Position numbers and translations under genes: made by a program. A stretch of 64,000 nucleotides of DNA. It comes from Sedimentisphaerales bacterium. Its GTDB lineage: Bacteria; Planctomycetota; Phycisphaerae; Sedimentisphaerales; SM23-30. Shown piece after piece: positions 714 through 61,471 of the stretch (its first letter is position 1; each line of letters begins with the position of its first letter). Below the pieces are notes generated by a model. It saw only the letters and a program-made list of their open reading frames with translations. It did no database searches and was not told where the DNA came from. The stretch covers positions 213,486-277,485 of the forward strand of contig OY763926.1 of assembly GCA_963667715.1 (NCBI GenBank), given 5' to 3'.

Positions 714-1331
714 ATGAATAATATATTTTACAATCCGGAGCTAAAGACAGACAGAAGCAGGCGGCATCTGCCGCACTGGCAGCAGGACGAGAAGCTGTAT
801 TTTGTTACTTTTCGATTAGCTGATTCAATACCGGCAGATGAACTGGCCCGGCTTGTAAAATTGCAGGAAGAATTTGAGCTTAACAATGTCAGGCCGTTCA
901 CTCCTGAGCAGGAGAAGCAATATTGTTATCTTTTCTACGAACAGATTAATAATTGGCTGGATAATTGTTACGGTGAATGTCTGTTGGAAAGAAGTGAAAA
1001 TGCTCAGATAGTAAAAAATGCTTTGGAGTATTTTGATGGTAAAAGATATCGGTTGGACCATTGGGTTATTATGCCCAACCACTTACACGTTATTCTTTTA
1101 TTAAATGAAGGAATAAACATTGGCGATATTACCCATAGCTGGAAATCGTATACTGGATTGCAGATTAACAAGCGAGAGGGCAGGACTGGCCCATTATGGC
1201 AGCATGAGTCATTTGACCATATAATCCGAAGTGACTTTTATCTTAATAAATATCGAGATTATATAATCGCAAACAAAATGAAAGCAAACAAAGCATTATT
1301 AAGTAGGTCAACCATCCTGGTTGACTCATAA
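714..1331 (+). CDS. REP-associated tyrosine transposase (RAYT) / IS200-like Y1 HUH transposase
   Basis: 205-aa ORF with an RRHLPHW N-terminal motif and an HUH motif in WVIMPNHLHVILL. It has a WQHESFDHIIR block and a C-terminal tyrosine motif, RDYIIANKMKA (compare YIxxNP of E. coli RayT). It is flanked by inverted REPs at 670-695 and 1336-1360. Confidence 0.8.
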   Translation: MNNIFYNPELKTDRSRRHLPHWQQDEKLYFVTFRLADSIPADELARLVKLQEEFELNNVRPFTPEQEKQYCYLFYEQINNWLDNCYGECLLERSENAQIVKNALEYFDGKRYRLDHWVIMPNHLHVILLLNEGINIGDITHSWKSYTGLQINKREGRTGPLWQHESFDHIIRSDFYLNKYRDYIIANKMKANKALLSRSTILVDS

Positions 1332-2167: not shown

Positions 2168-4546
2168 ATGAATGAGGCACAGACAAGGCATGATCTAATA
2201 GACCCGGCGTTGAAGGCTGCTGGTTGGGGAGTAGTTGAAGGCAGCCGTATTCGGGTGGAATATCCGATTACACAGGGGAGGCTGATCGGCCATGGCAGGC
2301 GAGCCAAGCCGTTGAGTGCTGACTATGTGTTGCAATATCGTAACCGTAACCTTGCAGTGGTTGAGGCTAAGAGCGACGAGGAAGGGTATAATGAGGGAGT
2401 TGGGCAGGCTAAGGATTATGCTGACCGTCTGAATATTCGCTTTACATATTCAACTAATGGTCTGGCGATTTACGGTATAGATATGGAGGAAGGTTTAGAA
2501 GGGATAGTTGCGAAATTTCCTGGTCCGGATGAATTATGGCAGATGACCTGGCCTGAGCCGGAGAGTGTGCTGGATATAGATAAGGCGAAGTGGCGTGAAA
2601 AGCTTTTTGCTGTGCCGTTTGAAGATAGGAGCGGTACCTGGCAGCCGAGATATTATCAGGAGAACGCTATTACCAAGGCCCTGGAAGCTGTTGCAGATGA
2701 TAAAAGACGTATTTTGCTGACATTGGCAACTGGTACCGGTAAGACAGCTATCGCCTTTCAGATAGCATGGAAGCTGTTTCACGCTAAATGGAACCTGAAA
2801 CGGGACGGGCAGCGAAGTCCCCGGATACTATTTCTGGCAGATAGGAATATATTGGCTGATCAGGCGTTTAACGCATTTAATGCCTTTGAAGAAGATGCAC
2901 TGGTAAGGATTGCACCGGATGAGATCAGGAAAAAGGGGAAAGTACCTAAAAACGGCAGCATATTCTTTACAATTTTCCAGACGTTTATGAGCGGGCCGGA
3001 AGATACGCCATATTTTGGTGAGTATCCAAAAGATTTCTTCGATTTAATTATTATAGATGAGTGTCATCGTGGTGGTGCTAATGATGAAAGTTCGTGGCGC
3101 GGAATTATGGATTATTTCAGTCCGGCGGTACAGCTTGGCCTGACGGCGACCCCTAAACGAGATGTTAATATTGACACTTATAAGTATTTCGGTGATCCGG
3201 TATATATCTATTCTCTGAAAAACGGTATTAACGATGGTTTTCTTACACCGTTTAAGGTCAAAGAGGTCGCTACCACTGGGGATGAGTATATCTATACCTC
3301 TGACGATACGATTATTGAAGGTGATATTGAAGAGGGCCGTACTTATACGATAGAAGAGCAGAATCGGATAATTGAGCTGATGGATGTTGAGCGTTTCAGA
3401 GTTCAGCAGTTTATGAAGATCATTAATCAGAGCCAGAAAACCCTGGTATTTTGTGCAACACAGCGTCATGCAGCGGCTGTGCGTGATCTTATCAATCAGA
3501 TTTCGACAAGCAGCAGTCCAAACTACTGTCATCGGGTAACCGCAGATGATGGTTCAATCGGTGAACAGCATTTAAGGGATTTTCAGGATAATGAAAAGAG
3601 TATACCAACGGTTCTGACAACTTCTCAGAAGCTTAGTACCGGTGTGGATGCCCCTGAGATACGTAATATCGTATTGCTGCGGCCAATTAACTCTATGGTA
3701 GAGTTTAAGCAGATCGTTGGCCGGGGGACGAGGCTGTTTGACGGTAAGGACTATTTTACCATCTTTGATTTCGTAAGAGCTCATGAGCATTTTAAAGATC
3801 CAGCCTGGGATGGTGAGCCGATCGATCCGGAACCGGCTGGGCCGGCAGAACCGAAACTGTGTAAGGTTTGTGGTCAGTGTCCGTGTATATGTCCAAAGCC
3901 GGAACCGGAGCTATGTCCGGATTGCGGGCAGTGGCCTTGTGTATGTGATAAGCCGTCAAAGAAAATGGTGCGTGTGAAGCTCTCTGACAGTAAGGTTCGT
4001 GAACTTGACTGTATGATAAAAACCAGCTTTTGGGACCCTACCGGTAAGCCAATATCAGCGGAAGAATTTATAAGAAAGCTGTTTGGTGATATACCAGCTA
4101 TGTTTGGTAATGAAGATGAGCTTAGAAAGATTTGGAGTCTGCCGGATACCAGAAGAAAACTGCTGGATGAGCTTAGCGAAAAAGGATATACCAGCGAACA
4201 GTTGTCAGATTTGAGTAAACTGGTCCATGGCGAGGATTGTGACCTGTATGATGTGCTGGCTTATGTGGCCTACCATAGAGATTTGGTGCCGAGACTGGAA
4301 CGAGCTGAGCGGGCTAAAATACATTTGGATTCTTATGATGTAAAACAACAGGAGTTTCTAAACTTCGTTTTGGAACAATATGTAAAAGTTGGTGTTGAAG
4401 AGCTTGATGAGGCTAAGTTGCCAGCACTGTTAGAACTTAAATATCGTGCTATTGCAGATGCAAAAACTGAATTGGGAGATATTAAAACGATACGAGAAAC
4501 GTTTATTGGATTTCAGGAGTATTTGTATTGGGTGAATGCGATGTAG
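2168..4546 (+). CDS. hsdR: Type I restriction enzyme R subunit (EcoEI/PRK11448-like)
   Basis: 792 aa. The N-terminal nuclease-type region reads EAQTRHDLIDPALKAAGW...DYVL...VVEAKS. SF2 helicase motifs are present: YYQENAI, ATGTGKT, DECHR, TATP. The C-terminus is EcoEI_R_C-like. A Cys-rich insert lies at about aa 565-595. Confidence 0.9.
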   Translation: MNEAQTRHDLIDPALKAAGWGVVEGSRIRVEYPITQGRLIGHGRRAKPLSADYVLQYRNRNLAVVEAKSDEEGYNEGVGQAKDYADRLNIRFTYSTNGLAIYGIDMEEGLEGIVAKFPGPDELWQMTWPEPESVLDIDKAKWREKLFAVPFEDRSGTWQPRYYQENAITKALEAVADDKRRILLTLATGTGKTAIAFQIAWKLFHAKWNLKRDGQRSPRILFLADRNILADQAFNAFNAFEEDALVRIAPDEIRKKGKVPKNGSIFFTIFQTFMSGPEDTPYFGEYPKDFFDLIIIDECHRGGANDESSWRGIMDYFSPAVQLGLTATPKRDVNIDTYKYFGDPVYIYSLKNGINDGFLTPFKVKEVATTGDEYIYTSDDTIIEGDIEEGRTYTIEEQNRIIELMDVERFRVQQFMKIINQSQKTLVFCATQRHAAAVRDLINQISTSSSPNYCHRVTADDGSIGEQHLRDFQDNEKSIPTVLTTSQKLSTGVDAPEIRNIVLLRPINSMVEFKQIVGRGTRLFDGKDYFTIFDFVRAHEHFKDPAWDGEPIDPEPAGPAEPKLCKVCGQCPCICPKPEPELCPDCGQWPCVCDKPSKKMVRVKLSDSKVRELDCMIKTSFWDPTGKPISAEEFIRKLFGDIPAMFGNEDELRKIWSLPDTRRKLLDELSEKGYTSEQLSDLSKLVHGEDCDLYDVLAYVAYHRDLVPRLERAERAKIHLDSYDVKQQEFLNFVLEQYVKVGVEELDEAKLPALLELKYRAIADAKTELGDIKTIRETFIGFQEYLYWVNAM

Positions 4547-5129
4547 GTTTGATGATGTTTTTTTATAGACGGGATAACTGCCCGGGTACGGGCTGGATTT
4601 TGGAGCCAGCTCCGATTTGTCGGAGACAGATTATGTTTGGTTTAAATATGTTTGGTAATGTTATACCTTCCTGGGCTTCGGGGGAGGAGAAGATTTTTTA
4701 TCCACAGATTTATTGTAATGGGTTCGCTGGGGCGAACAGGTGGTTGATTAATTGGCACAGATTTAAGAAGAATAATTTAGAAGAGGATTTCACGCAAAGA
4801 CGCGAGGTGCTTCGCACCCGCAAAGGAAGAAGAAGATTGCTAGGATGCGAGGATTATCAGGATAAGAAGAAGAGGAAGAGTTATTTCTCGCAGAGCTCGC
4901 GGAGGCGCAGAGGGAAGGAAATTTAATAATAAGAGTTTTAACGCGATGGTACTGAGAGTTGGTTGGCAGGTGTGGGTGTTAGTGAGTTTATGATTTGGTT
5001 GGAAAGTAAGGAAGAAGACTTAAGAATCCCGACGTGTATCGGGAAACTCTTGCGCGGGGAGATGGTTGGGCGAGGCTTATTAATCAAACTGAAGTTTGTA
5101 CTCTTAAAGCTTCGCGTTTTCTTTTTCCT
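4547..5129 (+). repeat. Mosaic intergenic cluster C1 (modules M1, a, f, g, h, j)
   Basis: Module a (CCACAGATT..GGTTCGC-n-GCGAAC..TTGATTAATT..CACAGATTTAAGAAG) is at 4701-4770. Module j (GGAAAGTAAGGAAGAAGACTTAAGAATCCCGACGTGTATCGGGAAACTCTTGCGCG) is at 5001-5056. Confidence 0.85.
4556..4699 (+). repeat. M1 element copy A (long form); candidate structured RNA/ssDNA element
   Basis: GGGATAAC, then hairpin GCCCGggtaCGGGC, then CTGGATTTT. Overlapping hairpins follow (GGAGCcaGCTCC and CTCCGAtttgTCGGAG), then CAGATT. The terminal hairpin is CCTTCC..GGGAGG followed by T6. Confidence 0.6.
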
Positions 5130-7624: not shown

Positions 7625-7654
7625 GAATCACAAGCAAGATGCTTGTGCTACTTA
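7625..7654 (-). repeat. Class-1 REP S1
   Basis: GAATCACAAGCaagatGCTTGTGCTACTTA; on the minus strand this reads TAAGTAG-CACAAGC...GCTTGTG. It lies 1 nt from the stop of the ABC ATPase gene. Confidence 0.75.
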
Positions 7655-9587: not shown

Positions 9588-9620
9588 AAGAATCACAAGC
9601 GAGGACGCTTGTGCTACTTA
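9588..9620 (-). repeat. Class-1 REP S2
   Basis: AGAATCACAAGCgaggacGCTTGTGCTACTTA. The TAA stop of the 9618-10388 gene is the TAA of TAAGTAG. Confidence 0.75.
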
Positions 9621-10388: not shown

Positions 10389-11316
10389 AATTTTGGTCCG
10401 TAAAAGGTTAAAGGTAAAAAGTTAAAGGTTTTATGTTTACCTGTATTATGTATCGTGTGATATTTGGCGGGACTTATGGCGGTTGGTGGGAGATGGTTGA
10501 TTATGGGGCGGCTGGTTGTGGGTTGGAGTGAGTAGGGTTATGGGTAAGTGGTTTGTTGATGGGAGGTTATTGGGATTGATAAGGTGAGAGCGGTGTATGG
10601 TGGGGCGGGTGGGTTATCGGACGGATTAGGGTGGGAATAAATGATTGATATGGGTGGGTGAATGTGGATAATATGTATGATTGTAAAAGGTAAGAGTAGT
10701 TGTCCACAGATTTGTTGAAAGGGGTTTGCTGCCGCAAACGCTGATTGATTAATTTACGCGGATTTAAGAAGAGGAGTAATTAAGAAATATATTTACCATG
10801 AAGTTCATGGAGATCTTAGTGACGGTCGAGCCGCAACCAAAAGTTTTATGTAAGAAGAGAATTAAGAGTTTAACGCAAAGTCGCCAGGTCGCAAAGAGTT
10901 GGTTGGCGATTGGGGGGGGGGAGATGATGGCAGTATGAAGAGTTTTTTGGGGAACCACAGATGAACACGGATGAACACCGATAAGGGGAAGTTGGGGAGA
11001 TACAAGATACATAGCAGCCGTAAAGGGGGGAAGAAGGAAATGGCTAGGATGCGAGGGTTTTTAGGATAAGAAGATTAAGAGAAGAGTTGGTTCTCGCAGA
11101 GGCGTGAAGATTTGGTTGGAGATGTGGGCGTTGGGGAGTTTGTGGTTTTGTTGGAAAGTAAGGAAGAAGACTTAAGAATCCCGATGTGTAACGGGAAACT
11201 CTTGCGCGAAGGGTTGGTTGGGAAGCTGCTTAGGAGACGCAAGATTTTGCGTCTCTACGTGGGGGGATGGTTTTTTTTTGGAAGTAGATAAACGAGAATG
11301 AATAGAAGAAACGAAG
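10389..11316 (+). repeat. Mosaic intergenic cluster C3 (AAAGGTA repeats, G/T-rich tract, a, b, c, g, h-variant, j, class-2 REP)
   Basis: Module a is at 10703-10772 with a compensated stem, GTTTGC..GCAAAC. GGTTGG/GGGTGG-rich DNA spans ~10440-10700. Confidence 0.8.
11233..11258 (-). repeat. Class-2 REP R2-1
   Basis: GGAGACGCAAgattTTGCGTCTCTAC; the minus strand reads GTAG-AGACGCAA..TTGCGTCT. Confidence 0.7.
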
Positions 11317-12927: not shown

Positions 12928-13530
12928 ATGTAGGGGGGGGATTCACAGATTTTTTGAAAGGGGTTCGCTGGGGCGAACAGCTGATTGATTAATTAACGCG
13001 GATTTAAGAGGGAGAATAATTAAGAAATATCTTTACCATGAAGTTCATGGAGATCATGAAGAGGGAAGAATTAATATAAGAGTTTAACGCAAGGGTGCTA
13101 AGTCGCAAAGAGTTGGTGGGCGACTGGGGGGGAGTTTGAGATGGTGGCATTGAGAAGAGTTTTTGTGAACCACAGAGGACACAGAGAAATAAGAAGAAGA
13201 AGGGTTTCACGCAAAGGGGCAAGGTGGTTGGTGCCCGCAAAGGGAGAAGAAAGAAAATTGCTAGGATGCGAGGATTATTAGGATAAGAAGAAGAGGTATT
13301 TCTCGCAGAGCTCGCGGAGGCGCAGAGGGAAGAAAGTTTAATAATAAGAGTTTTAACGCGAAGAGATGGTTAGGGTGTATAGTGTTGGGGAGTATATTAT
13401 ATGGTTGGGAAGTAAGGGAGAAGACTAAAGAATCCCGATGTGTATCGGGAAACTCTTGCGCGGGGGGGGAGAAGGGAGACGCAAGATTTTGCGTCTCTAC
13501 GGATGGGGTGGTTGGTGGGGTTGTGAAGAT
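12928..13530 (+). repeat. Mosaic intergenic cluster C4 (a, b, c, d, e, f, g, h, j, class-2 REP); the most complete copy
   Basis: Module a is at 12942-13012, starting 15 nt after the nadB stop. All modules appear in the canonical order. Confidence 0.85.
13475..13500 (-). repeat. Class-2 REP R2-2
   Basis: GGAGACGCAAgattTTGCGTCTCTAC. Confidence 0.7.
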
Positions 13531-14759: not shown

Positions 14760-15340
14760 AAATGTTTTTTGATCCACTGATTTTTTGAAAGGGGTTCGCT
14801 ACTGCGAACAGCTGATTGATTAATTAACGCGGATTTAAGAGAGAGGATAATTAAGAAATATATTTACCATGAAGTTCATGGAGATCATGAAGGGGGAAGA
14901 AAAATATAAGAGTTTAACGCAAGGGCGCTAAGTCGCAAAGAGTTGGTTGGCGATTAAGGGTTAGTTTGAGATGTTGGCAATAGGATTTTTTTGCAGGGAT
15001 TAGAGGATAGGAGGATGATTTTTTAGGATAAGAGTAAGGGAAGAGTTTTTACCATGAAGTTCATGTAGATCATGAAGGGGGAAGAAAAAATATAAGAGTA
15101 TAACGTGAATGGATGGTTGGCGGTGCGGGTAATTTGGTAGTTTATTATATGGTTGGGAAGTAAGGAAGAAGACTTGAGAATACCGATGTGTATCGGGAAA
15201 CTCTTGCGTGGAAGAGAAAGTCAGTATTAGTGTGACTTTCTTGTATTATAATTCTTCATATTATGCAATATTAAGAATCACAAGCCCCGATGTTCTTCGA
15301 GACTTGTGCTACTTAGGAGATGCAAGGTGTTGTGTCTCTA
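14760..15340 (+). repeat. Mosaic intergenic cluster C5 (a, b, c, d, g-variant, second b, j, GAAAGTCA hairpin, S3, degenerate class-2 REP)
   Basis: Module a is at 14773-14843. Module b (ACCATGAAGTTCATGGAGATCATGAAG) occurs twice. Confidence 0.85.
15274..15315 (-). repeat. Class-1 REP S3 (extended stem with nested mini-hairpin)
   Basis: AGAATCACAAGccCCGAtgttcTTCGagaCTTGTGCTACTTA, 25 nt 3' of the 15341-16609 stop. Confidence 0.7.
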
Positions 15341-16609: not shown

Positions 16610-16854
16610 ATACTCTCTTCTCCAGTTGCCGGTTAGGTGTTGACCTTGATGGTTAGTATCAAGGGAATTTGCGGGTGTATTTATATATTATACAATATAT
16701 GTGAGTTGTGGCAAAATATCGGGATGAAGATTTTTTTTATCCACGGATTTTTTTAGATGGGTTCGCTACCGCAAACTGCTGATTGATTAATTGGCACAGA
16801 TTTAAGAAGGGGAATGATTTAGAAGAGGATTAAGATTTTAACACAAAGTGCAAA

Positions 16855-16970
16855 GATTTTTTTGGATGGGATAACCGACCGCCTGTGGCGGTCTGGATTT
16901 TAGCGGCAGATTGAGTGGGGCGGAATATAGATTGTTGAATGTTTACATTCTCCGGGGGCGGGGGAGAAAG
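16855..16970 (+). repeat. M1 element copy C (short form)
   Basis: GGGATAACC, then GACCGCCtgtGGCGGTC, then CTGGATTTT-AGCGG-CAGATTG. Terminal hairpin TTCTCC..GGAGAA. Confidence 0.6.
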
Positions 16971-17368
16971 TAGAAGAGGAGAATTATGAGTTTAAGGAAA
17001 GGGCGCGAAGACGCAAAGATTTGGTTGGCAATTTTGGGGTGGTTGGAGATGGTGGCATTGAGAAGATTTTTTACCACAGAGGGCACAGAGAACACAGAGA
17101 AGAAGAATTTTTTGCAGGGATAGAGGATAAGAAGATGATAATCAGGATAGCGAATTAAGGTTATTGACCTGCAAAGTTCGTGTGCTTTTAACGAGAATGT
17201 AAAGTGCGATTATTTAGCAAGTTAGATCGAATGTGAAAAATAATGACACATAAAAAACAAGAAAATGATGGATAGTAGTGCAGAGGGAAGAAAATATAAT
17301 AATAAAATGTCAGGTTGTTGTGTAACTTATATACCAGGTTATTTGAGTTGGTTGGGGAAGTTATATTG

Positions 17369-17410
17369 AGAATCACAAGTCCCGATGTGCTTCGGGACTT
17401 GTGATTCTTA
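17369..17410 (-). repeat. Class-1 REP S4 (long stem, nested mini-hairpin, no GTAG)
   Basis: AGAATCACAAGTCCCGAtgtgcTTCGGGACTTGTGATTCT. Confidence 0.65.
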
Positions 17411-17436
17411 GGAGACGCAATATTTTGCGTCTCTAC
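17411..17436 (-). repeat. Class-2 REP R2-3
   Basis: GGAGACGCAAtattTTGCGTCTCTAC. Confidence 0.7.
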
Positions 17437-17487: not shown

Positions 17488-19575
17488 TTATTGGAGCCAG
17501 TTTTGGGCGAGGGTTGCGAAGTCCTGGATGTTTATTGTGCCGTCGGGGGCTAGGTCGCAGTCGAGGCAGGTTGGGTTGGATTCGCAATCGGTGAGCCAGA
17601 AGGCGGCCATGTTTGCCAGGTCGGCAATAGTGGCGGGCGGGCAGATTTCGTCAACTTCTATGACTATGCCGGGATTGTTGGCTATGATCAGCGGCAGGTC
17701 ACGGTTATAGCTTTCGCAGGTAATAGGGTTACCTGTGAGTGATAGTCGGGTAAGGTTAGTTAGTTTGGTAAGAGCAGAGATGTCGGTTATGTTATTGTTG
17801 TCAAGGTATAGCTCTATTAGGCTTGGCATCTCAGCTAGTATTGATAGGTCAGAGATACTACAATTTTTTGCATATAGACTATGTAGCCTTATAGCATATT
17901 CGAGTCCGGTAAGGTCAGAGATATCATAGCCTGAAATCCTCAGATAAAAAGCCATGAGCATGTCACAGCTAGTCAGATCTGTTACCCCTAGAGTGTCTGA
18001 TACAATATCCTTTAAGAATGGGTCATTGAACATATCTGTGACCGGGTCAGTACAATTGCAAGTATAGTGTCGTTCGAAGTACATATATGGGTTGTTGGAA
18101 AGGATTGTGCTGACATCCTGAAAATAATGATCACATGAAATTGGATTCATCTTAGTCATAAGATATCTTAGATTGGAAAGCGAAGTTAAAGGCTCCAGGT
18201 CGGTAATCTGGTTATCGTACAGGTACAGGTATTCAAGCGAATCAAGTTCGGAGAGCGGAGTGAGGTCGGTTACCATATTATGAGATAGATGAAGTTCGTA
18301 TAGTCTGTGGGCATGTTCCAGACCGGTAAGGTCTGTGATGCCTGCCGAGGACACGGTCAAATAGTAGAGATTTCGCATATCCCAGGCAGTTGGGTTTGTA
18401 ATACCAATTTCATTTTCTACAGCGGCTTTCAGGACAGGATCATTGAAGAGAACCGGCTCTGCTTCCTGACCGTCAGGCAGGCAGCTGTAATCTTCGTATA
18501 GAATTTTGAAATAGTCTGGATTGTTGGCTGTGAGGATAGGTATTATTTCGTTAATTGATGAACAGTAAAGCTGGTTATTGTTCAGGTTAACGAATATTAG
18601 ATTTGTCATTGCGGATAACGGGGCGAGATCGTGGATGTTGTTGTTCCTGAAGCCTAATACTTCAAGGTTAGGCAGGCCGGCTAATGGGGCAATATCGGAT
18701 ATTTGGTTGTCATAGGCGTATATAGAACGTAGAGATGTTATTGAAGACAGGAAGCTGAGGTCCGAGATGTTGCAATTATCCATATCTAAAAACTGCAGTT
18801 CTGATAGTGACTGAAGAATATTATAGTTAGTTATGTTAGGATTTTCAGATATATTTAAGGAAGAAATTCGGTCAAAGTTTAATAAAAAGCTGATGTCGGT
18901 AAGGTTACAGTCAGCAATATAAAGGGTAAATAGATTCTCCATATGACATATGGGCGTGAAGTCGGTTATCGGATTGCCACTTAGACCTACAGAGCTTAGT
19001 TCCATACTCGAAAGGAAGCTGATATCAGAGATATTACAGTATGCAATTCCAATGTTTTCGAGTAGTGGCAGGGTAGGCAGAATAGAGAAATCGGTTATAG
19101 GGTTACTGCCCAGAAAAAGTTTGGATAAGTTTGGCAGGTTGGAGAGGAAGCTGATGTCCGAGATATTACAGTCACCAATGTTTAATAAAGAGAGGCTGGT
19201 AATATTACCGAGGTTTTCAGGGTTAGTTATATTATTACCAGATAAGTATAGATATTTTAGGTTAGTAAGCGATGTGATAGGAGATATGTCGGTTATGTTA
19301 TAGTTGTCAAGGTGCAGGCTTTCAAGATTGAGGGCATATTCGAGACCGGTGAGATCGGTTATTTCTACTGAAGCGATACGGTATAAATCTGTAAGTAAGA
19401 GCATGTCGCTTTCGGTTGGGTCTGTAATGCCAAGCTGTATTTCGACCGTTGATTTCAGGTTGGGGTCGGTGAAGGTGACCGGGGTATCAGGTGCGGCCAG
19501 GGCCGGGCTGAAGGTTGAGGTGAAAAGCTGGACAAAAACAGATAGGAATACGATAGCTAAACAGTTCTTTTTCAT
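17488..19575 (-). CDS. Secreted leucine-rich-repeat (internalin-like) protein with C-terminal dockerin-like module
   Basis: Start set at MKKNCLAIVFLSVF (signal peptide). Many 22-aa LRRs (LxxLxLxxNxIxDIsxL). The C-terminus reads CDLAPDGTINIQDFATLAQNWLQ. Confidence 0.85.
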   Translation of the reverse strand: MKKNCLAIVFLSVFVQLFTSTFSPALAAPDTPVTFTDPNLKSTVEIQLGITDPTESDMLLLTDLYRIASVEITDLTGLEYALNLESLHLDNYNITDISPITSLTNLKYLYLSGNNITNPENLGNITSLSLLNIGDCNISDISFLSNLPNLSKLFLGSNPITDFSILPTLPLLENIGIAYCNISDISFLSSMELSSVGLSGNPITDFTPICHMENLFTLYIADCNLTDISFLLNFDRISSLNISENPNITNYNILQSLSELQFLDMDNCNISDLSFLSSITSLRSIYAYDNQISDIAPLAGLPNLEVLGFRNNNIHDLAPLSAMTNLIFVNLNNNQLYCSSINEIIPILTANNPDYFKILYEDYSCLPDGQEAEPVLFNDPVLKAAVENEIGITNPTAWDMRNLYYLTVSSAGITDLTGLEHAHRLYELHLSHNMVTDLTPLSELDSLEYLYLYDNQITDLEPLTSLSNLRYLMTKMNPISCDHYFQDVSTILSNNPYMYFERHYTCNCTDPVTDMFNDPFLKDIVSDTLGVTDLTSCDMLMAFYLRISGYDISDLTGLEYAIRLHSLYAKNCSISDLSILAEMPSLIELYLDNNNITDISALTKLTNLTRLSLTGNPITCESYNRDLPLIIANNPGIVIEVDEICPPATIADLANMAAFWLTDCESNPTCLDCDLAPDGTINIQDFATLAQNWLQ

Positions 19576-19918
19576 ATTATCCTCCCAGAATAAATGGCTC
19601 AATCAATATTACAGGCTGTAATTGAGCTGGTTAAAAAATAACAGGTATGGCTTATTATTTAAAAATGTTATGGTGTTTAACTTTGTGGGGGTTAAAAGGT
19701 ATGGTTCCCAATTATTATAATTTCACTCAGGCTGGACAAAAGATGACCAGCATTATTTCATAATAGGAAATTGGAGAATGTGATGCAAGAATAAAAAAGT
19801 TTTTTTATCCACAGCTAATAGGTGTTCGCTGGGGCGAACTGCTGATTGATTAATTTGCACAGATTTAAGAAGAATAATTAAGATTTTAACGCAGAGAAGT
19901 GAAGACGCAAAGTGCAAA

Positions 19919-20034
19919 GATTTTTTTGGATGGGATAACCGACCGCCTGTGGCGGTCTGGATTTTAGCGGCAGATTGAGTGGGGCGGAATATAGATTGTT
20001 GAATGTTTACATTCTCCGGGGGCGGGGGAGAAAG
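19919..20034 (+). repeat. M1 element copy C' (short form)
   Basis: Identical by eye to copy C. Confidence 0.6.
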
Positions 20035-20676
20035 TAGAAGAGGAGAATTATGAGTTTAAGGAAAGGGCGCGAAGACGCAAAGAGTTGGTTGGCAATTTTG
20101 GGGTGGTTGGAGATGGTGGCATTGAGAAGATTTTTTACCACAGAGGGCACAGAGAACACAGAGAAGAAGAATTTTTTGCAGGGATAGAGGATAAGAAGAT
20201 GATAATCAGGATAGCGAATTAAGGTTATTAACCTGCAAAGTTCGTGTGCTTTTAACGAGGATGTAACGTGCGATTATTTAGCAAGTTACATTGAATGTGA
20301 AAAATAATGACACATATAAAACAAGAAGTTGATGAATAGTAGTACAGAGAAGAAGAGGATTTCACGCAAAGGCGCAAGGTGCTTCGCACCCGCAAAGGAA
20401 GAAGAATAGTTGCTAGGATGCGAGGATTTTTAGGATAAGAAGATGATGATTAGGATAGTGAATTAAGGTTATTGACCTGCAAAGTTAGTGTGCTTTTAAC
20501 GAGGATGTAACGTGCGATTATTTAGCAAGTTAGATTGAATGTGAAAAATAATGACACATAAAAAACAAGAAAATGATGGATAGTAGTGCAGAGGGAAGAA
20601 AATATAATAATAAAATGTCAGGTTGTAGTGTAACTTATATACCAGGTTATTTGAGATGGTTGGGGAAGTTATATTG

Positions 20677-20718
20677 AGAATCACAAGTCCCGATGTGCTT
20701 CGGGACTTGTGCTACTTA
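20677..20718 (-). repeat. Class-1 REP S5
   Basis: AGAATCACAAGTCCCGAtgtgcTTCGGGACTTGTGCTACTTA. Confidence 0.7.
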
Positions 20719-20744
20719 GGAGACGCAATATTTTGCGTCTCTAC
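20719..20744 (-). repeat. Class-2 REP R2-4
   Basis: GGAGACGCAAtattTTGCGTCTCTAC. Confidence 0.7.
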
Positions 20745-23276: not shown

Positions 23277-23306
23277 AAACTTATTGACCGATGGTGAATA
23301 AGTTTA

Positions 23307-23351
23307 GAAGTTAGGAATTAGAAATTAGAAATTAGAAATTAGAAATTAGAA
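23307..23351 (+). repeat. Octamer microsatellite (GAAATTAG)n, about 5-6 units
   Basis: GAAGTTAGGAATTAGAAATTAGAAATTAGAAATTAGAAATTAG. Confidence 0.85.
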
Positions 23352-23384
23352 AACCCCGAAATATGATTATTTCGGGGTTTTTTG
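23352..23384 (+). terminator. Rho-independent terminator of ilvBN
   Basis: AACCCCGAAAT-atgatt-ATTTCGGGGTT followed by a T-run. Confidence 0.85.
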
Positions 23385-23413: not shown

Positions 23414-23446
23414 AGAATCACAAGCAAGGATGCTTGTGCTACCTTA
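23414..23446 (-). repeat. Class-1 REP S6
   Basis: AGAATCACAAGCaaggatGCTTGTGCTACCTTA. The stop codon of the 23444-24031 gene lies in the flank. Confidence 0.7.
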
Positions 23447-26648: not shown

Positions 26649-27509
26649 ATGCAGATCAAAGTTTTATGTATTGGCGATATTGTAGGGCGGCCAGGCAGAC
26701 AGGTGTTGTCCGAGAAATTACCAATTCTGGTGAAAGAACATAATATAAGCTGCGTAGTAGCAAATGCCGAGAATTCGGCTGGTGGTTCCGGCATTACGCC
26801 GCAGATCCATGATAAGCTGCTGAAATATGGTGTAAATGTAATTACGCTGGGCGACCATGTGTTCCGGAAAAAAGATATTATCAGTACTCTGAATAATTCG
26901 AGTAATATAATCCGTCCGGCGAATATGTCGGTATATGCGGCGGGCAAAGGATTTACAATATTCCATACTCAGGATGGCTGTGATGTGGCGGTAATATCTC
27001 TGCTGGGCAGGTTGTATATGAATCTGCCGGGTGAGAATCCTTATCTGGCGGTGGAGAAGATATTGCCGAAGCTGCCTTCGCATATTAAGGTAATAATTGT
27101 AGAGCTTCATGCAGAGGCGTCCAGCGAGAAAGTTGCGATGGGGCGTTTTCTTGATGGTAAGGTGTCGCTTGTATATGGTACGCATACCCATATTCCGACT
27201 GCGGACGAAGAGATATTTCCAGGTGGGACGGGGTATATAACTGATATTGGTATGACCGGCCCGCATGAATCGGTGCTGGGCAGGAATATTGAGCCGGTGG
27301 TGAAGAGCCTGGTGACACAGATGCCGTTTTCTTATAGTATCGCAACTCGCGACCTGAGAGTGAACGGGGTGCTGGCTACGATCGATAGTCATACGGGTAA
27401 GACAATAGAGCTTAAGCGTGTGCGAATAGACAGCGATATGTGCGATAGTATAGTATATGATCAGGATGATGGTTCTGCCAGCAGCAGGATCAATAGTTCG
27501 TTTGATTGA
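26649..27509 (+). CDS. ymdB: YmdB-like metallophosphoesterase (TIGR00282 family, 2',3'-cyclic-nucleotide phosphodiesterase)
   Basis: MQIKVLCIGDIVGRPGR, ANAENSAGGSGIT and GDH motifs. The rny-ymdB neighbourhood is conserved. Confidence 0.88.
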   Translation: MQIKVLCIGDIVGRPGRQVLSEKLPILVKEHNISCVVANAENSAGGSGITPQIHDKLLKYGVNVITLGDHVFRKKDIISTLNNSSNIIRPANMSVYAAGKGFTIFHTQDGCDVAVISLLGRLYMNLPGENPYLAVEKILPKLPSHIKVIIVELHAEASSEKVAMGRFLDGKVSLVYGTHTHIPTADEEIFPGGTGYITDIGMTGPHESVLGRNIEPVVKSLVTQMPFSYSIATRDLRVNGVLATIDSHTGKTIELKRVRIDSDMCDSIVYDQDDGSASSRINSSFD

Positions 27510-28100
27510 TTTAGGAATTAGTCCCGATGTGCATCGGGATAGAAATTAGGGGGAGTTTGGGGTATTGTTTTTTAGGGTTGCCGGGGGCGGTGCGCAACTA
27601 AAATGTAAGAATATCAATCCACAGATTTATTTTAATGGGTTCGCTACCGCGAGCTGCTGATTGATTAATTTACACAGATTAAAGAAGAATAATTAAGAAG
27701 AGAATTAAGAGTTTTTTTACCATGAAGTTCAGGGAGATCATAGGGCGTTCAAGCCGCAACCAAAAGTAATAAGAAACAAGAAATAAGCTCCTGTTTCTCG
27801 CTATGCTCGAAGCTAATTTATTTAAGAGTTAGTATGTTTGCGGTATGGTTATTGAGCTCTATTGCTAAATGAGTTACAGATGTTACAAGAAATAATCGAA
27901 CATAAAAAACAATGTTTTGGGAGATAGTAGTATGAAGGGGGGGGAAGAGTTTAACGCAAAGGCGCGAAGTCGCAAAGAGTTGGTTGGCGACTGGGGAGGG
28001 GGTTGGGATTTGTGATATGATTGGAAAGTAAGGAAGAAGACTGAAGAATCCCGATGTACATCGGGAAAGGCCGGAACTCTTGCGCGGGGAGTTGGTTGGC
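27510..28100 (+). repeat. Mosaic intergenic cluster C8 (mini-hairpin 27522-27539, a, b, i-variant, c, j)
   Basis: Module a is at 27618-27687. Module j is ...GGAAAGTAAGGAAGAAGACTGAAGAATCCCGATGTACATCGGGAAAGG. Confidence 0.8.
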
Positions 28101-34319: not shown

Positions 34320-34691
34320 TATTATTTATCCGTAGATTATTTTTGAGGTGTTTGCTGGGGCGAACGGCTTATTGATTAATTTGCACAGATTTAAGAATGA
34401 AATTATAGATATGAATGACCCTGGTGTGTTTTTGCATCAGGGTTATTTTTTTTTGGGGAAAATAGAATTAAGAGGAAGATTTAACGCAAGGTCGCTAAGA
34501 CGCAAAGATTTGGTTGGCGGTATTGGGGATTTGTGAGTTTGTGACTTTGGTTGGGGAGTAAGGAAGAAGACTAAAGAATCCCGATGTGCATCGGGAAATG
34601 GCCGGAACTCTTGCGTGAAGAGATGGATGGCGGGATGGGGGATTAGGGAGTTTGCTGGGATTAGTAGAGACGCAAAATCTTGCGTCTCTAC
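34320..34691 (+). repeat. Mosaic intergenic cluster C9 (a, c-variant, j, class-2 REP)
   Basis: Module a is at 34329-34397 with stem GTTTGC..GCGAAC (wobble). Module j contains TCCCGATGTGCATCGGGA. Confidence 0.8.
34664..34691. repeat. Class-2 REP R2-6 (GTAG on both strands)
   Basis: GTAGAGACGCAAaatcTTGCGTCTCTAC. The TAG stop of the 34688-37417 gene is the TAG of the minus-strand GTAG. Confidence 0.75.
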
Positions 34692-43680: not shown

Positions 43681-44060
43681 GGGGATGGGGGGTTGAGTGA
43701 TGGGGAGGTGGATTGGACGATTGGGGGTTGGTTTGAGATGATAAAATTAAGATTTTTTACCACAGAGGGCACTGAGAAGAAGAGGATTTCACGCAAAGGC
43801 GCAAGGTGCTTCGCACCCGCAAAGGAAGAAGAATAGTGGCTAGGATGCGAGGATTAATAGGATAAGAGGAAGAGGAGATTGTTTCTTACAGAGACGTGAA
43901 GAGTTGGTTGGCAAAGTTATACCAAGAATCACAAGTCCCGATGTACTTCGGGACTTGTGCTACCTAAAAGGAAGAAGACTAAAGAACCGGCTGAAGGCCG
44001 GAACTCTTGCGCGGGGGGGAGTTGGTGGAGAATGTGGGGTTGGTTTATGAGAAAAGTAAA
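43681..44060 (+). repeat. Mosaic intergenic cluster C10 (d, e, f, g, h-variant, S7, j-variant; lacks module a)
   Basis: TTTGAGATGATAAAATT.., ACCACAGAGGGCACTGAGAAG, CACGCAAAGGCGCAAGGTGCTTCGCACCCGCAAAGG and GCTAGGATGCGAGGATTAATAGGATAAGAGG. Confidence 0.8.
43925..43966 (-). repeat. Class-1 REP S7
   Basis: AGAATCACAAGTCCCGAtgtacTTCGGGACTTGTGCTACCTA. Confidence 0.7.
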
Positions 44061-44257: not shown

Positions 44258-44319
44258 AGTAAGTAATAAGTAACAAGTAACAAGTAACAAGTAACAAGTA
44301 ACAAGTAACAAGTAACAAG
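44258..44319 (+). repeat. Heptamer microsatellite (GTAACAA)n, about 6 perfect plus 2 degenerate units
   Basis: GTAAGTAATAAGTAACAAGTAACAAGTAACAAGTAACAAGTAACAAGTAACAAG. Confidence 0.85.
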
Positions 44320-44355
44320 TTCAGGTTCCGCCCTTTGGGCGAGGCTGATTAATTA

Positions 44356-44515
44356 CTCAAACTGACCGACTGTCAGTTTGAGAGGAGTTAGTATTTAGGA
44401 TTTAGCAATTAGTTGAATAGAATGACTTCAAAAACTAATTACAAACCACCAATCATTAAGCCCTTTGTTGATAGTGTATTACAATATACAAACTGAAGTT
44501 TTCGGTCAGTTTGAG
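44356..44515 (+). mobile_element. MITE-like element X1 (160 bp, 14-bp terminal inverted repeats)
   Basis: Left end CTCAAACTGACCGA, right end TCGGTCAGTTTGAG. Each end also folds locally (CTCAAACTG..CAGTTTGAG). TTAATTA flanks both sides, a possible target-site duplication. Confidence 0.6.
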
Positions 44516-44572
44516 TTAATTATTAGTTATTTGCTTGTGCATGCCTCCATATGAATTTGTAAAGTTCATTAT

Positions 44573-47394: not shown

Positions 47395-47785
47395 GAGTTT
47401 TCCACAGATTTAGTCCAAGGTGTTCGCTACCGCGAACTGCTGATTGATTAATTTACACAGATTAGAGTAGGAAGAGAAATAGGAGTTTAACGCAAGGACG
47501 CGAAGACGCAAAGGGTTGGTTGGGAAATAAGGAAGAAGGCTGGAGAATCCCGATAAATCGGGAACTCTTGCGTGGGGGGAGTGGGTTGGCGATTTGGGTT
47601 GGTTTGGATGAGATGCGTGGCTTTTTATTTGTATTCGCTTTGCTCATGGCTTGGAAATCAAACTAAAGGGTGTGTTGCCTAAAAGAGTAAGTCAGAATAT
47701 TGTGTAACTTATACACCAGATTCATTGAGATGGTTGGCAAAGTTATACCAAGAATCACAAGCGAGGACGCTTGTGCTACTCATGG
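47395..47785 (+). repeat. Mosaic intergenic cluster C11 (a, c, j, S8)
   Basis: Module a is at 47401-47470. Module j has loop variant TCCCGATAAATCGGGA. Confidence 0.8.
47751..47782 (-). repeat. Class-1 REP S8
   Basis: AGAATCACAAGCgaggacGCTTGTGCTACTCA; the stem and loop are identical to S2. Confidence 0.7.
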
Positions 47786-49443: not shown

Positions 49444-49731
49444 TAATGTAAGGGCGCGAAGTTACAAAGAGTTGGTTGGAGGTGTAGGATTTTATGGAGT
49501 TTTTGGTTTGGTTGGTAAATAGGGAAGAAGAAATTGCTAGGATGCTAGGATTTTTAGGATAAGAAAATGAAGAGAAGATTGTTTCTCGCAGAGGCGCGAA
49601 GGTGCAGAGGCTTGGTTGGCGACTGAGGGTGGGTTGGTATTTGAGATATGGTTAGGAAGTAAGGAAGAAGGCTAAAGAACCCGATTAATCGGGAACTCTT
49701 GCGCGGGGGAGTTGGTTGGCGAAGTTGTATT

Positions 49732-49773
49732 ATGAATCATAAGTCCCGATGTATTTCGGAGCTTGTGATACCT
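49732..49773 (-). repeat. Class-1 REP S9 (diverged)
   Basis: TGAATCATAAGTCCCGAtgtatTTCGGAGCTTGTGATACCTA. Confidence 0.6.
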
Positions 49774-53224: not shown

Positions 53225-53899
53225 GCAAGGGAAAAAGTTGTGAGGGTGGATTGTTTGGTGATTTGCGAGGGTGAGAATGAGGAGAAGGAAGAGTTTTTTA
53301 TCCACGGATTTATTTAAATGGGTTCGCTGCCGCGAACTGCTGGTTGATTAATTTACACAGATTTAAGAGGGAGGATTAAGATGTATTTACCATGAAGTTC
53401 ATGGAGATCTTAGGGCGGTCGAGCCGCAACCAAAAGTTTAATGTAAGAAGAGAATTAAGAGTTTAACGCAAAGACGCAAGGTCGCAAAGAGTTGGTTGGC
53501 GATTGGGAGTTAGTTTGAGATGGTAGCATGAAGAATTTTTTGCAGGGATTAGAGGATGAGAAGATGATAATAAGGATAGCGAATTAAGGTTATTAATCTG
53601 CAAAGTTCGTGTGCATTTTAACGAGAATGTAACGTGCGATTATTTTGCAAGTTACATCGAATGTGAAAAATAATGAGACATATAACACAAGAAGTTGATG
53701 GATAGTAGTACTGAGAAGAAGAGGAGTTCGCGCAAAGGAGGGGAGGGGAATTAAGAAGGTAAAGAATTAAGGCTAGTATGCTAGGATTTTTAGGATAAGA
53801 GGGAGAATATTTTTTGCGTAGCTGGCGGAGGGGGAAAGGAAGAAGACTAAAGAATCCGATGAATCGGGAACTCTTGCGCGCGGGGGGGGGGAGATTGGG
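53225..53899 (+). repeat. Mosaic intergenic cluster C13 (a, b, c, d, g-variant, i, g, j)
   Basis: Module a is at 53301-53370. Module i is at ~53575-53705. Module j has loop variant ATCCGATGAATCGGGA. Confidence 0.85.
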
Positions 53900-57406: not shown

Positions 57407-57460
57407 AGTATATAAGTTCCGTATATCTGGTAGGGCCACAGAAGTGGCGTTAGTTATTAA

Positions 57461-57648
57461 CTCAAACTGACCGATGGTTAGTTTGAGAGGAGTTAGTCCC
57501 GATGTGCTTCGGGATAGAATTTAGCAATTAGTTGAATAAAAAGTCTTCAATCAGCAACTACTAATTTTTATCCCGATGTACTTCGGGACTAAAATCTTTT
57601 TTTATAGTGAATTACGACATTCAAACTGAGGCTTTCGGTCAGTTTGAG
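57461..57648 (+). mobile_element. MITE-like element X2 (188 bp), same 14-bp TIRs as X1, carrying two nested mini-hairpins
   Basis: CTCAAACTGACCGA ... TCGGTCAGTTTGAG. Extra TCCCGATGTGCTTCGGGA (57497-57514) and TCCCGATGTACTTCGGGA (57571-57588) are absent from X1. Confidence 0.6.
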
Positions 57649-57721
57649 TTGTTTATAACCATATTAATGGTCAGAGTTATTATAATTTTGATTGGTTGTG
57701 TGGTCAAAGGAATAATGATTA

Positions 57722-57820
57722 AGTGCAAAGGTGAAGAAGTGCAAAGGTGAAGAAGTGCAAAGTGCGAAGTGCGAAGTGCAAAGTGCGAAGAGGGAAGAGG
57801 GAAGAGAGGAGGGGGGGAAG
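57722..57820 (+). repeat. Purine-rich microsatellite block (GTGCAAA/GTGCGAA heptamers, GGTGAAGAAGTGCAAA, GAGGGAA)
   Basis: AGTGCAAAGGTGAAGAAGTGCAAAGGTGAAGAAGTGCAAAGTGCGAAGTGCGAAGTGCAAAGTGCGAAGAGGGAAGAGGGAAGAG. Confidence 0.85.
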
Positions 57821-60233: not shown

Positions 60234-61471
60234 TGAGCGAAGAAAACAGACAAGCGGCGATGAAGGTAATTGAGATTCTGCACGAAGCGGGGTTCCAGGG
60301 TTTATGGGCCGGAGGTTGCGTGCGTGATATGCTGATGGGGGTAGAGCCTCAGGATTATGATATAGCGACGGATGCGTACCCGGAGCAGGTAGGGAAGCTG
60401 TTTCGCAGGACGCTAATGGTGGGTGCCCAGTTTGGTGTGGTTGTGGTACTTATCGGTAATGTACAGATCGAGGTTGCGACATTTCGCAGTGAGGGTGGGT
60501 ATGCAGATGGGCGGCGGCCGGATAGTATAGAGTTTACCGATGCAAAGGAAGATGCGCTGCGTCGAGACTTTACTATTAACGGGATGTTCTATGATCCGAT
60601 AGCAGATGAGGTGCTGGACTATGTAGGTGGTAGGCATGATCTGGAGGGGCGGGTAATCCGGGCGATCGGAGATGCTGAGGCTCGGTTTGGTGAGGATCAT
60701 TTGCGGATGCTGAGAGCGGTGCGTTTTGCTGCACGGCTGGGTTATGTGATCGAGAGTAAGACATGGCAGGCGATATGTAAGCATCGGATGCGGATAAGTA
60801 TGATAAGTGCTGAACGGGTGGCGATGGAGCTGGAGAAGATCCTGGTGCATGAGAGTCGTCATACGGGTATGCGGCTGCTGGCTGATTGCGGGCTGATGAA
60901 GTATATATTTCCGTGGTGCTCGCCGGAGTGTCATGAGGAGGGTATCGAGCTGCTGAAGTATATCAGGGGTGAGGTTGATCTTGGACTTGGGCTGGCGATG
61001 ATATTGATAGCGGAGGAAGTTGAGGATGTTGGTCAGATATGTCGGGAGCTGAAACTGAGTAATGATGTGAGGAAGAAGGGGCACTGGCTGGCGGCGGGTA
61101 TGGCGAAGCTGGCGGGAGATATGCCGTTGAGTAAGGGTCGGCTCAAGCGATGGCTGGCGAATGAGTGGTTTGGCGACTTGAGGCGACTGATGCGGGCGAG
61201 GAATGAGCAGCTGGGCGAGTCGAATGAGGCGATGGATAGGCTGGCGGAACAGATAGAGGAGCTGGGCGATGAGGAGATAACGCCGGTACCGATCTTGAAT
61301 GGTAATGATCTGATGGCTTTGGGTATTAAGCCGGGGCCGGGGCTGGGAGCGATGTTTGATAAGGTATATCTGGCACAGCTGGAAGGGGAGATTGTTGATA
61401 AGGGGCAGGCGGAGGAAATGGTTAGGAAGTGCAAAGTGCAAAGTGCAAAGTGCGAAGATGGGGAAGTGTAG
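60233..61471 (+). CDS. cca: CCA-adding enzyme / poly(A) polymerase-family tRNA nucleotidyltransferase
   Basis: GGCVRDMLMG..PQDYDIAT, RSEGGYADGRRP and RRDFTINGM. TGATG overlap with the rsmD stop. The last ~14 codons are encoded by a GTGCAAA repeat. Confidence 0.88.
   Translation: MSEENRQAAMKVIEILHEAGFQGLWAGGCVRDMLMGVEPQDYDIATDAYPEQVGKLFRRTLMVGAQFGVVVVLIGNVQIEVATFRSEGGYADGRRPDSIEFTDAKEDALRRDFTINGMFYDPIADEVLDYVGGRHDLEGRVIRAIGDAEARFGEDHLRMLRAVRFAARLGYVIESKTWQAICKHRMRISMISAERVAMELEKILVHESRHTGMRLLADCGLMKYIFPWCSPECHEEGIELLKYIRGEVDLGLGLAMILIAEEVEDVGQICRELKLSNDVRKKGHWLAAGMAKLAGDMPLSKGRLKRWLANEWFGDLRRLMRARNEQLGESNEAMDRLAEQIEELGDEEITPVPILNGNDLMALGIKPGPGLGAMFDKVYLAQLEGEIVDKGQAEEMVRKCKVQSAKCEDGEV
61429..61457 (+). 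repeat. (GTGCAAA)x3 + GTGCGAA heptamer repeat inside the cca 3' end
   Basis: GTGCAAAGTGCAAAGTGCAAAGTGCGAAG encodes the tail ..KCKVQSAKCED. Confidence 0.85.

Follow-up and report, generated by a model that had tools for sequence, protein, structure and literature searches.

An 18-nucleotide hairpin stands in place of short resident segments in unrelated intergenic repeats of a Sedimentisphaerales genome

Introduction

Can a hairpin of 18 nucleotides be a mobile or templated unit in its own right? The question is raised by a 64-kb stretch of bacterial DNA (the window, by which we mean the whole stretch analysed) in which one small hairpin recurs in three repeat contexts, a GTAG-tagged REP, a module termed j, and a pair of X elements. 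For mobile DNA in bacteria, understanding extends to elements as small as MITEs and REPINs, ~100 bases in length; among shorter sequences, to our knowledge, only the small dispersed repeats (SDRs) of cyanobacteria have been argued to move. The SDRs of Nostocaceae, reportedly described by Elhai and colleagues in 2008, are said to be very short and hairpin-forming and to be regarded as mobile. A preliminary description of the window had proposed that the 18-mer is itself inserted or copied into otherwise homologous elements. Here we compare hairpin-bearing and hairpin-less forms within the window and in other genomes.

Results and Discussion

Sequence, frequency and setting of the hairpin

The pattern TCCCGATGTRYWTCGGGA matches ten times in the 64-kb window, where 0 matches are expected from 100 dinucleotide-preserving shuffles of the window. 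The ten matches represent nine distinct sites, because the copy at 28049-28066 is a perfect palindrome and is matched on both strands. With any loop and one stem mismatch allowed, 12 sites are found in the window (0.13 expected), and when two REP tips that have decayed and three forms with a short loop (CCCGAT-AA/TA/GA-ATCGGG at 47548, 49680 and 53855) are added, the family has 17 members in 64 kb. The motif is therefore more frequent than composition predicts, and the loop variants listed in the preliminary description (GATAAATC, GATTAATC and GATGAATC) were all found.

The stem is constant, TCCCGA(T)/(A)TCGGGA, and the loop is free, ranging from 2 to 6 nt, with the family spanning 14- to 18-mers; the perfect palindrome TCCCGATGTACATCGGGA is the consensus of the 18-mer. 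All 17 members are intergenic, lying between long ORFs within the three repeat contexts, and the surrounding gene pairs are convergent, divergent and tandem alike. Wherever the loop is asymmetric, TGT... is read on the + strand, irrespective of gene direction, and the broken stems among the 18-mer copies of the window carry no compensatory changes. The immediate flanks depend on the context (AAGAA/AACTC, CAAG/CTTG, TTAG/TAGA and TTTA/CTAA) and hold no common tag. Rfam 15 gave zero matches at gathering score anywhere in the window, and a full-text literature search found no occurrence of the 18-mer sequence or its variants. The 18-mer is a discrete, self-contained non-coding cassette, a hairpin whose stem is conserved and whose loop varies freely.

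Table 1. Features of the window and hairpin-bearing loci of other genomes (L numbers).
Feature	Location	Strand	Remarks
RAYT-like gene	714..1331	+	profile scores just under curated cut-offs
Module j, 18-mer centre	13433..13450	+	GGGAGAAGACTAAAGAA, hairpin, AACTCTTGCGCGGGG
Module j, equivalent copies	5027-5044, 11179-11196, 15181-15198		one substitution each in the 18-mer
Module j, perfect palindrome TCCCGATGTACATCGGGA	28049..28066		then AAGGCCGG
Module j, 18-mer as at 28049	34579-34596		then AATGGCCGG
Module j, alternative hairpin	43987..44001	+	CCGGC-TGAAG-GCCGG, at the same position
Module j, short-loop form	47548..47563	+	TCCCGATAAATCGGGA
Module j, short-loop forms	49680-49693, 53855-53869		CCCGATTAATCGGG and TCCGATGAATCGGGA, respectively
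REP with 18-mer tip, GTAG-tagged	43926..43963	-	reads GTAGCACAAG...CTTGTGATTC
REPs with 18-mer at identical junction	17370-17407, 20678-20715
REPs with decayed hairpin tip	15275-15312, 49734-49771		decayed tips at 15285 and 49744
REP with plain tip	47752..47779	-	tip CGAGGACG; flanks those of 43926
Other REPs with plain tip	7625-7651, 9590-9617, 23415-23442
X-type hairpin copy	27522..27539	+	loop TGTGCA; just past the stop codon of ORF 26649-27509
X1, homologous to X2	44345..44526		no hairpin at either site
X2, palindromic, MITE-like	57459..57650		terminal arms AACTCAAACTGACCGA / TCGGTCAGTTTGAGTT
Hairpin copy, X2 left arm	57497..57514	+	TCCCGATGTGCTTCGGGA; X1 has TATT in its place
Hairpin copy, X2 right arm	57571..57588	+	TCCCGATGTACTTCGGGA; mirror-symmetric to the 57497 copy
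Draconibacterium	L049		replaces CGGACTG; partial tRNA-Asn copy, ~100 nt upstream of intact tRNA-Asn
Saccharibacteria	L086		replaces the entire 17-nt anticodon arm of a partial tRNA-Val copy
Neolewinella	L004		replaces D-arm GAGCAC and T-loop GACTC of tandem tRNA-Ala remnants
Fibrobacter	L078, L069		replaces a CCCC-TTCG-GGGG hairpin in two copies of a seven-copy repeat
Viral contig 3300030616_000010	L253, L255, L259		in 1 of 6 copies of a GC-rich hairpin, replaces its 12-nt tip; in 1 of 5 copies of a second repeat, 7 nt
Phycisphaerales	L109		replaces 9 nt
Chitinophaga MAG	L064		replaces 6 nt
Sedimentisphaerales CAXXFK01	L041, L046, L060		replaces TGGACG in 3 of 7 copies of a CGCAGAT-decamer module

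Hairpin tips and plain tips of the class-1 REP

The class-1 REP reads GTAG-CACAAG-tip-CTTGTG on the minus strand and is GTAG-tagged in the sense of PMC3733652. Its copies divide exactly as had been claimed, with a hairpin tip at 15275, 17370, 20678, 43926 and 49734 and a plain 5-6-nt loop at 7625, 9590, 23415 and 47752. The four plain tips, of the form C-loop-G, are CAAGATG, CGAGGACG (twice) and CAAGGATG, and in the five hairpin-tipped copies the 18-mer stands in place of this 7-8-nt tip at a single junction, CACAAG/TCCCGA...TCGGGA/CTTGTG. The REPs at 43926 (hairpin) and 47752 (plain) match without a difference for 30 nt to the left of the tip and 10 nt to its right, and the tip alone differs. 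Folding predictions place the 18-mer as a coaxial extension of the REP stem, with -13.4 to -19.1 kcal/mol for hairpin-tipped REPs as compared to -9.7 kcal/mol for the plain REP.

Loop position 6 is T in all REP tips and A in all module j copies. The hairpins at 17380 and 20688 lie within a segmental duplication of ~580 nt and are thus not independent; the five hairpin-tipped REPs, with their one shared junction, may descend from a single event. The direct repeat in question (16841-17423 and 19905-20731, 96-99% identity) brackets a leucine-rich-repeat gene at 17488-19602, and its second copy holds an internal 244-nt tandem duplication. A search of metagenomes with the REP pattern GAATCACAAG-N6-20-CTTGTG returned 120 stretches, all of them chance matches with unrelated flanks.

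The RAYT-like gene

ORF 714-1331 scores 74.8 with NCBIfam REP_Tyr_transpos (cut-off 80) and 22.8 with Pfam Y1_Tnp (cut-off 23). It is flanked by tandem units of 232-234 nt (1-698, 3.0 copies; 1336-2159, 3.5 copies), each comprising two GTAG REPs in inverted orientation, all of them plain-tipped. Since the REPs beside the RAYT gene are all plain, the plain tip is probably the ancestral form. Each unit also contains an apparent 3' end of a type I restriction S-subunit frame (...KAFSGELTK, stop) ahead of the REP pair, and an hsdR gene follows downstream at 2168-4546.

The pattern search of the window found no 18-mer below position 5027, hence none in the units beside the RAYT gene. In addition, the 18-mer bears no unpaired GTAG or CGTC tag at either end such as defines a REP (the host REP does carry GTAG), and its copies do not flank the RAYT gene as the repeats of a REPIN-RAYT system do. 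The missing tag argues against the 18-mer being the RAYT's own REP, and nothing was found that links the two.

Module j

Module j consists of GGAAGAAGACTAAAGAA, a centre and AACTCTTGCGCGGGG; the centre is always a small hairpin, but which hairpin varies. The preliminary description had taken the 18-mer to be the core of this module, and this holds at 13433, 5027, 11179, 15181, 28049 and 34579 but not for the example it cited, 27522-27539, where the flanks read TTAG...TAGAAATTAG, matching those of the X2 copies, without the GGAAGAAGACTAAAGAA...AACTCTTGCGCGGGG module. At 28049 and 34579, the 18-mer is found in place of CCGGCTG, which is the 5' arm plus two loop bases of the alternative hairpin, and the AAGGCCGG that follows the palindrome at 28049 is the surviving 3' arm of that hairpin.

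X elements

Two hairpins had been reported in X2 (57497-57514 and 57571-57588) and none in X1, and the alignment of the two elements bears this out, being continuous but for two gaps. The inner arms of X2 are 37 nt long and 81% complementary, with one 18-mer in each. The unit TTAG-hairpin-TA(G/A)AA(A/T)TTAG of X2 recurs at 27522, and the X-type hairpin copies sit in TTAG-heptamer tracts. Tandem arrays of heptamers (TTAGAAA x7, AAGTAAC x8.6 and AAGTGCA/AAGTGCG) occur at 23304-23352, 44261-44320, 57721-57797 and 61427-61457.

Both X2 loops read TGTRCT on the + strand although the arms that carry them are inverted. Taken with the T at loop position 6, these same-strand loops suggest that the X2 copies have a common source with the REP tips and are not a simple inverted duplication. 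Two parallel point changes would explain them too.

Occurrence in other genomes

A scan for the 18-mer in one genome per species (185,579 genomes, 596 Gb) returned at least 116 stretches. As chance alone is estimated to yield ~140 hits over the whole 596 Gb, a single hit carries little weight. The exact 18-mer occurs at two or more separate loci in at least 16 assemblies, for an estimated expectation of ~0.1 over the 185,579 genomes; among the matches listed, the multi-locus assemblies comprise ten Planctomycetota, three Bacteroidota (Prolixibacteraceae, Draconibacterium), one Fibrobacter and two Patescibacteria. The Pirellulales assembly CAYNKI01 has seven loci among the matches listed, and because all of their flanks differ, the 18-mer itself is the repeat unit. 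Besides CAYNKI01, genomes with at least five copies include Sedimentisphaerales OY762711 and CAXXFK01, Draconibacterium WGCT01 and Fibrobacter JAAYPC01. Among the copies listed from other genomes, the palindromic loop TGTACA is present in 59 of 146 (chance ~7%); neither this loop bias nor the number of multi-locus assemblies is a chance result. A purine precedes the 18-mer in 99 of 121 listed copies, and a pyrimidine follows it in 97 of 121. The relation between loop orientation and GC skew in other genomes is weak (55 versus 32 copies, p = 0.018) and is gone at strong skew.

Viral contigs of 64-73% G+C also carry the 18-mer, one 42-kb contig having three copies in short gaps between co-directional genes. 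This placement would fit a selected functional site, either a binding site or an RNA hairpin (a stabiliser, terminator or processing signal) that was recruited repeatedly, as would the Flavobacterium 18-mer, which is orthologous in four species and lies between an A run and a T run in the manner of a bidirectional terminator. The copies of the window argue otherwise: no T run accompanies module j, the REP or X2 copy 1, and an intrinsic terminator (a G+C-rich hairpin with a T run, oriented with the upstream gene) was not found at any of them; the loops keep to one DNA strand whatever the gene arrangement, and the broken stems are uncompensated. The varying loop length is likewise at odds with an operator that binds a dimer, and since the stem stays constant as the loop length changes, we regard the unit as a hairpin and not as a fixed-spacing operator on double-stranded DNA. 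We consider selection for such a site improbable.

Matches in RNase P P12 (L087 1234-1668) and in 16S rRNA helix 10 (L056 5817-6149) are native helices of consensus size, and their resemblance to the 18-mer is probably due to chance. These, and a hit in the 5' part of Neolewinella 23S rRNA, were left out as evidence.

Replacement of resident bases at the junctions

A search for hairpin-less paralogous flanks found the replacement signature in ten paralogue sets from eight other assemblies, which belong to Planctomycetota, Bacteroidota, Fibrobacter and Saccharibacteria and include one viral contig (Table 1). Of the 16 copies with a hairpin in these sets, 13 have received the 18-mer itself, and in the other three the incoming piece is longer (19 nt in Fibrobacter L078 and L069; 20 nt in L060). 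In Neolewinella L004, the incoming variant is an 18-nt CCCCGAT-ANNT-ATCGGGG whose central bases differ between copies. The Draconibacterium copy has flanks identical to the intact tRNA-Asn gene over 21 and 17 nt. For the three tRNA cases, the ancestral state can be read from the intact tRNA-Asn, tRNA-Val and tRNA-Ala genes, and thus the hairpin is incoming; it is clearly the derived state in the partial tRNA copies, and the hairpin-less forms are not deletion products.

Two of these tRNA loci have further features. In Neolewinella aquimaris (L004 455-715), two tandem tRNA-Ala remnants follow the intact gene in the tRNA-Ala/23S rRNA spacer. In the Saccharibacteria MAG (L086 4730-5115), the partial and intact tRNA-Val copies bracket what appears by eye to be a truncated GIY-YIG nuclease frame, an arrangement that suggests a degraded element inserted in the tRNA-Val gene.

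Within the window, the 18-mer takes the place of 7-8 resident nt in the REP and of 7 nt in module j, and X1 has 4 nt where X2 has the hairpin; the unit has the same exact 18-nt boundaries in each of these contexts. Across all junctions examined, the loss is 4-17 nt, and the outer stem of the host is kept. No clean empty site was found among the junctions of the window or the paralogue sets of the eight other assemblies. The proposal that the hairpin was inserted or copied into homologous elements is thus upheld in so far as a discrete unit has come in between identical flanks, but this was not simple insertion, as resident bases were replaced. Deletion from a longer ancestor, the alternative that the preliminary description had set against its own proposal, does not account for the differences, because the hairpin-less forms carry different bases in place of the hairpin. 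Gene conversion between pre-existing subfamilies could be another source of the differences between paralogues. The combination of exact ends with a variable loss of target argues against generic recombination, which would be expected to drag along donor flank.

The description of the hairpin as a very small mobile or templated unit also stands for the most part: a discrete unit does enter other repeats, but much of its copy number reflects amplification of the host repeats. In the window, the count is swollen by the segmental duplication and by a REP subfamily with one junction, and the independent acquisitions number perhaps about four at minimum. The 18-mer might be one module among others in BIME-like mosaics, spread by a few old recombinations and by subfamily amplification, with no mobility of its own. 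Other modules do recombine freely (the GGAGACGCAAnnTTTTGCGTCTC hairpin, for example, is found after module j and also after the REP), the hairpin-tipped REPs have their junction and the T at loop position 6 in common, and 17380 and 20688 are segmental duplicates. Mosaic shuffling leaves unexplained, however, why the same 18-mer replaces tRNA-copy and unrelated repeat sequence in other phyla, why its boundaries are constant, and why TGTRCT lies on the same strand in both mirror-image copies of X2; we judge it unlikely to be the whole account.

Direct repeats at some copies raise the further idea of a minimal transposon whose stem halves are terminal inverted repeats, moved by a transposase acting in trans with duplication of a short target. 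Such repeats are seen at 27522 and 57497 (TAG), in CAXXFK01 (CAGA) and in L018, L039 and L072 (4-8 nt); those of at least 4 nt number five among the 121 copies listed (four if L041 and L046 are counted once), against 0.5 expected. However, they vary in length and lie within short tandem-repeat tracts (TTAG heptamers, CGCAGAT decamers, CTTCAGGC words), for which reason they may be background, and among the matches listed 90 of 121 copies have no direct repeat. The loss of resident bases at every junction examined and the lack of a clean empty site there also weigh against transposition of this kind, and 18 bases is very short for a paired-end transposition complex. Nor does the 18-nt unit have the terminal inverted repeats with fixed-length duplication, or the 70-300 bp, of a MITE. 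We regard a minimal transposon as very unlikely.

A model for the spread of the hairpin

We lean toward the reading that the 18-mer cassette was copied over short resident segments of intergenic repeats and was then amplified passively with its host repeats. Its preferred targets would be small hairpins already present, either at the tip or in one arm. The resident hairpin may be extruded on single-stranded DNA and its tip opened or trimmed, after which a mini-hairpin copy would restore continuity. That copy could be synthesised over a short length with another copy as template, or it could be a separate mini-hairpin that stacks on what is left of the stem and is ligated there. The cassette would then multiply as the GTAG REP, module j and the X element amplify. 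We do not think that the enzyme behind the replacement is the RAYT. The targets that are not hairpins, namely the TTAG heptamer tract of the X copies, the CGCAGAT decamers of CAXXFK01 and the sites L064 and L109, count against this patching of tips.

A wider form of the proposal, in which a sequence-specific hairpin-swapping process that lays a fixed 18-nt cassette over arbitrary small hairpins is common to Planctomycetota, Bacteroidota, Fibrobacter, Saccharibacteria and some viruses, is possible but doubtful. If it were true, REP tips, arms of redundant tRNA gene copies and intergenic hairpins of phages would all be targets of swapping, and there would exist a kind of mobile DNA that has exact ends but neither duplicates its target nor encodes a protein, and that relies on a trans-acting enzyme or on free mini-hairpin DNA. 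An 18-base unit with defined junctions gives the question of small-repeat mobility testable cases, in which the tRNA copies define donor, target and polarity, and its cross-phylum reach, together with these junctions, makes the mechanism testable. Annotation is affected as well: since REP tips, MITE arms and tRNA-like remnants are altered by the unit, a single family would be divided into two by repeat classifiers and in REPIN/RAYT censuses.

Relation to known small repeats

The closest parallel in kind is the SDRs, which, as described in the papers that cite them (PMC5861425, PMC3116915 and PMC3733652), are very short, protein-less hairpin repeats nested in other repeats; the 18-mer is likewise a short hairpin repeat nested in others, with presence or absence between homologues. 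SDR4-6 are 21-27 nt long and, in the account given in PMC5861425, reported solely in Nostocaceae, which sets them apart from the 18-mer and its Sedimentisphaerales host. Compared with SDRs as the citing papers portray them, the 18-mer family differs in its size of 18-20 nt, in its presence in Planctomycetota and other phyla and in its replacement signature.

GTAG REP families in which short-loop copies coexist with long, self-complementary-loop copies, and REPs nested in other palindromes, have been described by Di Nocera et al. (2013, PMC3733652). The host REP of the window resembles these in its GTAG tag, its proximity to a RAYT-like gene and its coexisting short and stem-forming loops; there, however, the long loops are family-specific, whereas here one tip is common to unrelated repeats, tRNA copies and phyla. 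The GC clusters of yeast mitochondria (PMC4478555) and the hairpin elements of sponge mitochondria (PMC2800124) are also small non-coding palindromes with presence or absence at homologous positions, and their units merge and shuffle, but they are organellar, 30-50 nt long and associated with a putative AG target duplication, whereas the 18-mer is bacterial, shorter and without consistent duplication. Insertion sequences of the IS1397 type, as cited in PMC3116915, share the use of REP hairpins as preferred entry points; in that account they are full-length, encode a transposase and leave the tip in place, whereas the 18-mer replaces it.

Host genome and relatives

The IlvB homologues place the host in the Sedimentisphaerales (Phycisphaerae, Planctomycetota). 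For comparison, we used the ilvB neighbourhoods of relatives (L117-L122; 81-90% IlvB identity, ~70 kb), in which no hairpin, REP, module j or X was found. The orthologous ilvB promoter is conserved, and the repeat cluster upstream of ilvB is present in the window only. As these stretches of the relatives are without all the repeats, the repeat load is lineage-specific. The window has 44% G+C, and in each of its 4-kb bins the GC skew, which is extreme, lies between +0.17 and +0.39, independent of gene strand; the skew of the relatives is only -0.09 to +0.09.

The intergenic modules examined (GTAG REPs, module j and GGTTGG-rich blocks) all point the same way. The DnaA-box consensus TTATCCACA occurs five times in the window (0.76 expected), at 4698, 10663 (minus strand), 19805, 47231 and 49173, and at least the box at 4698 lies within a repeated TTTTTTATCCACAGAT-type module.
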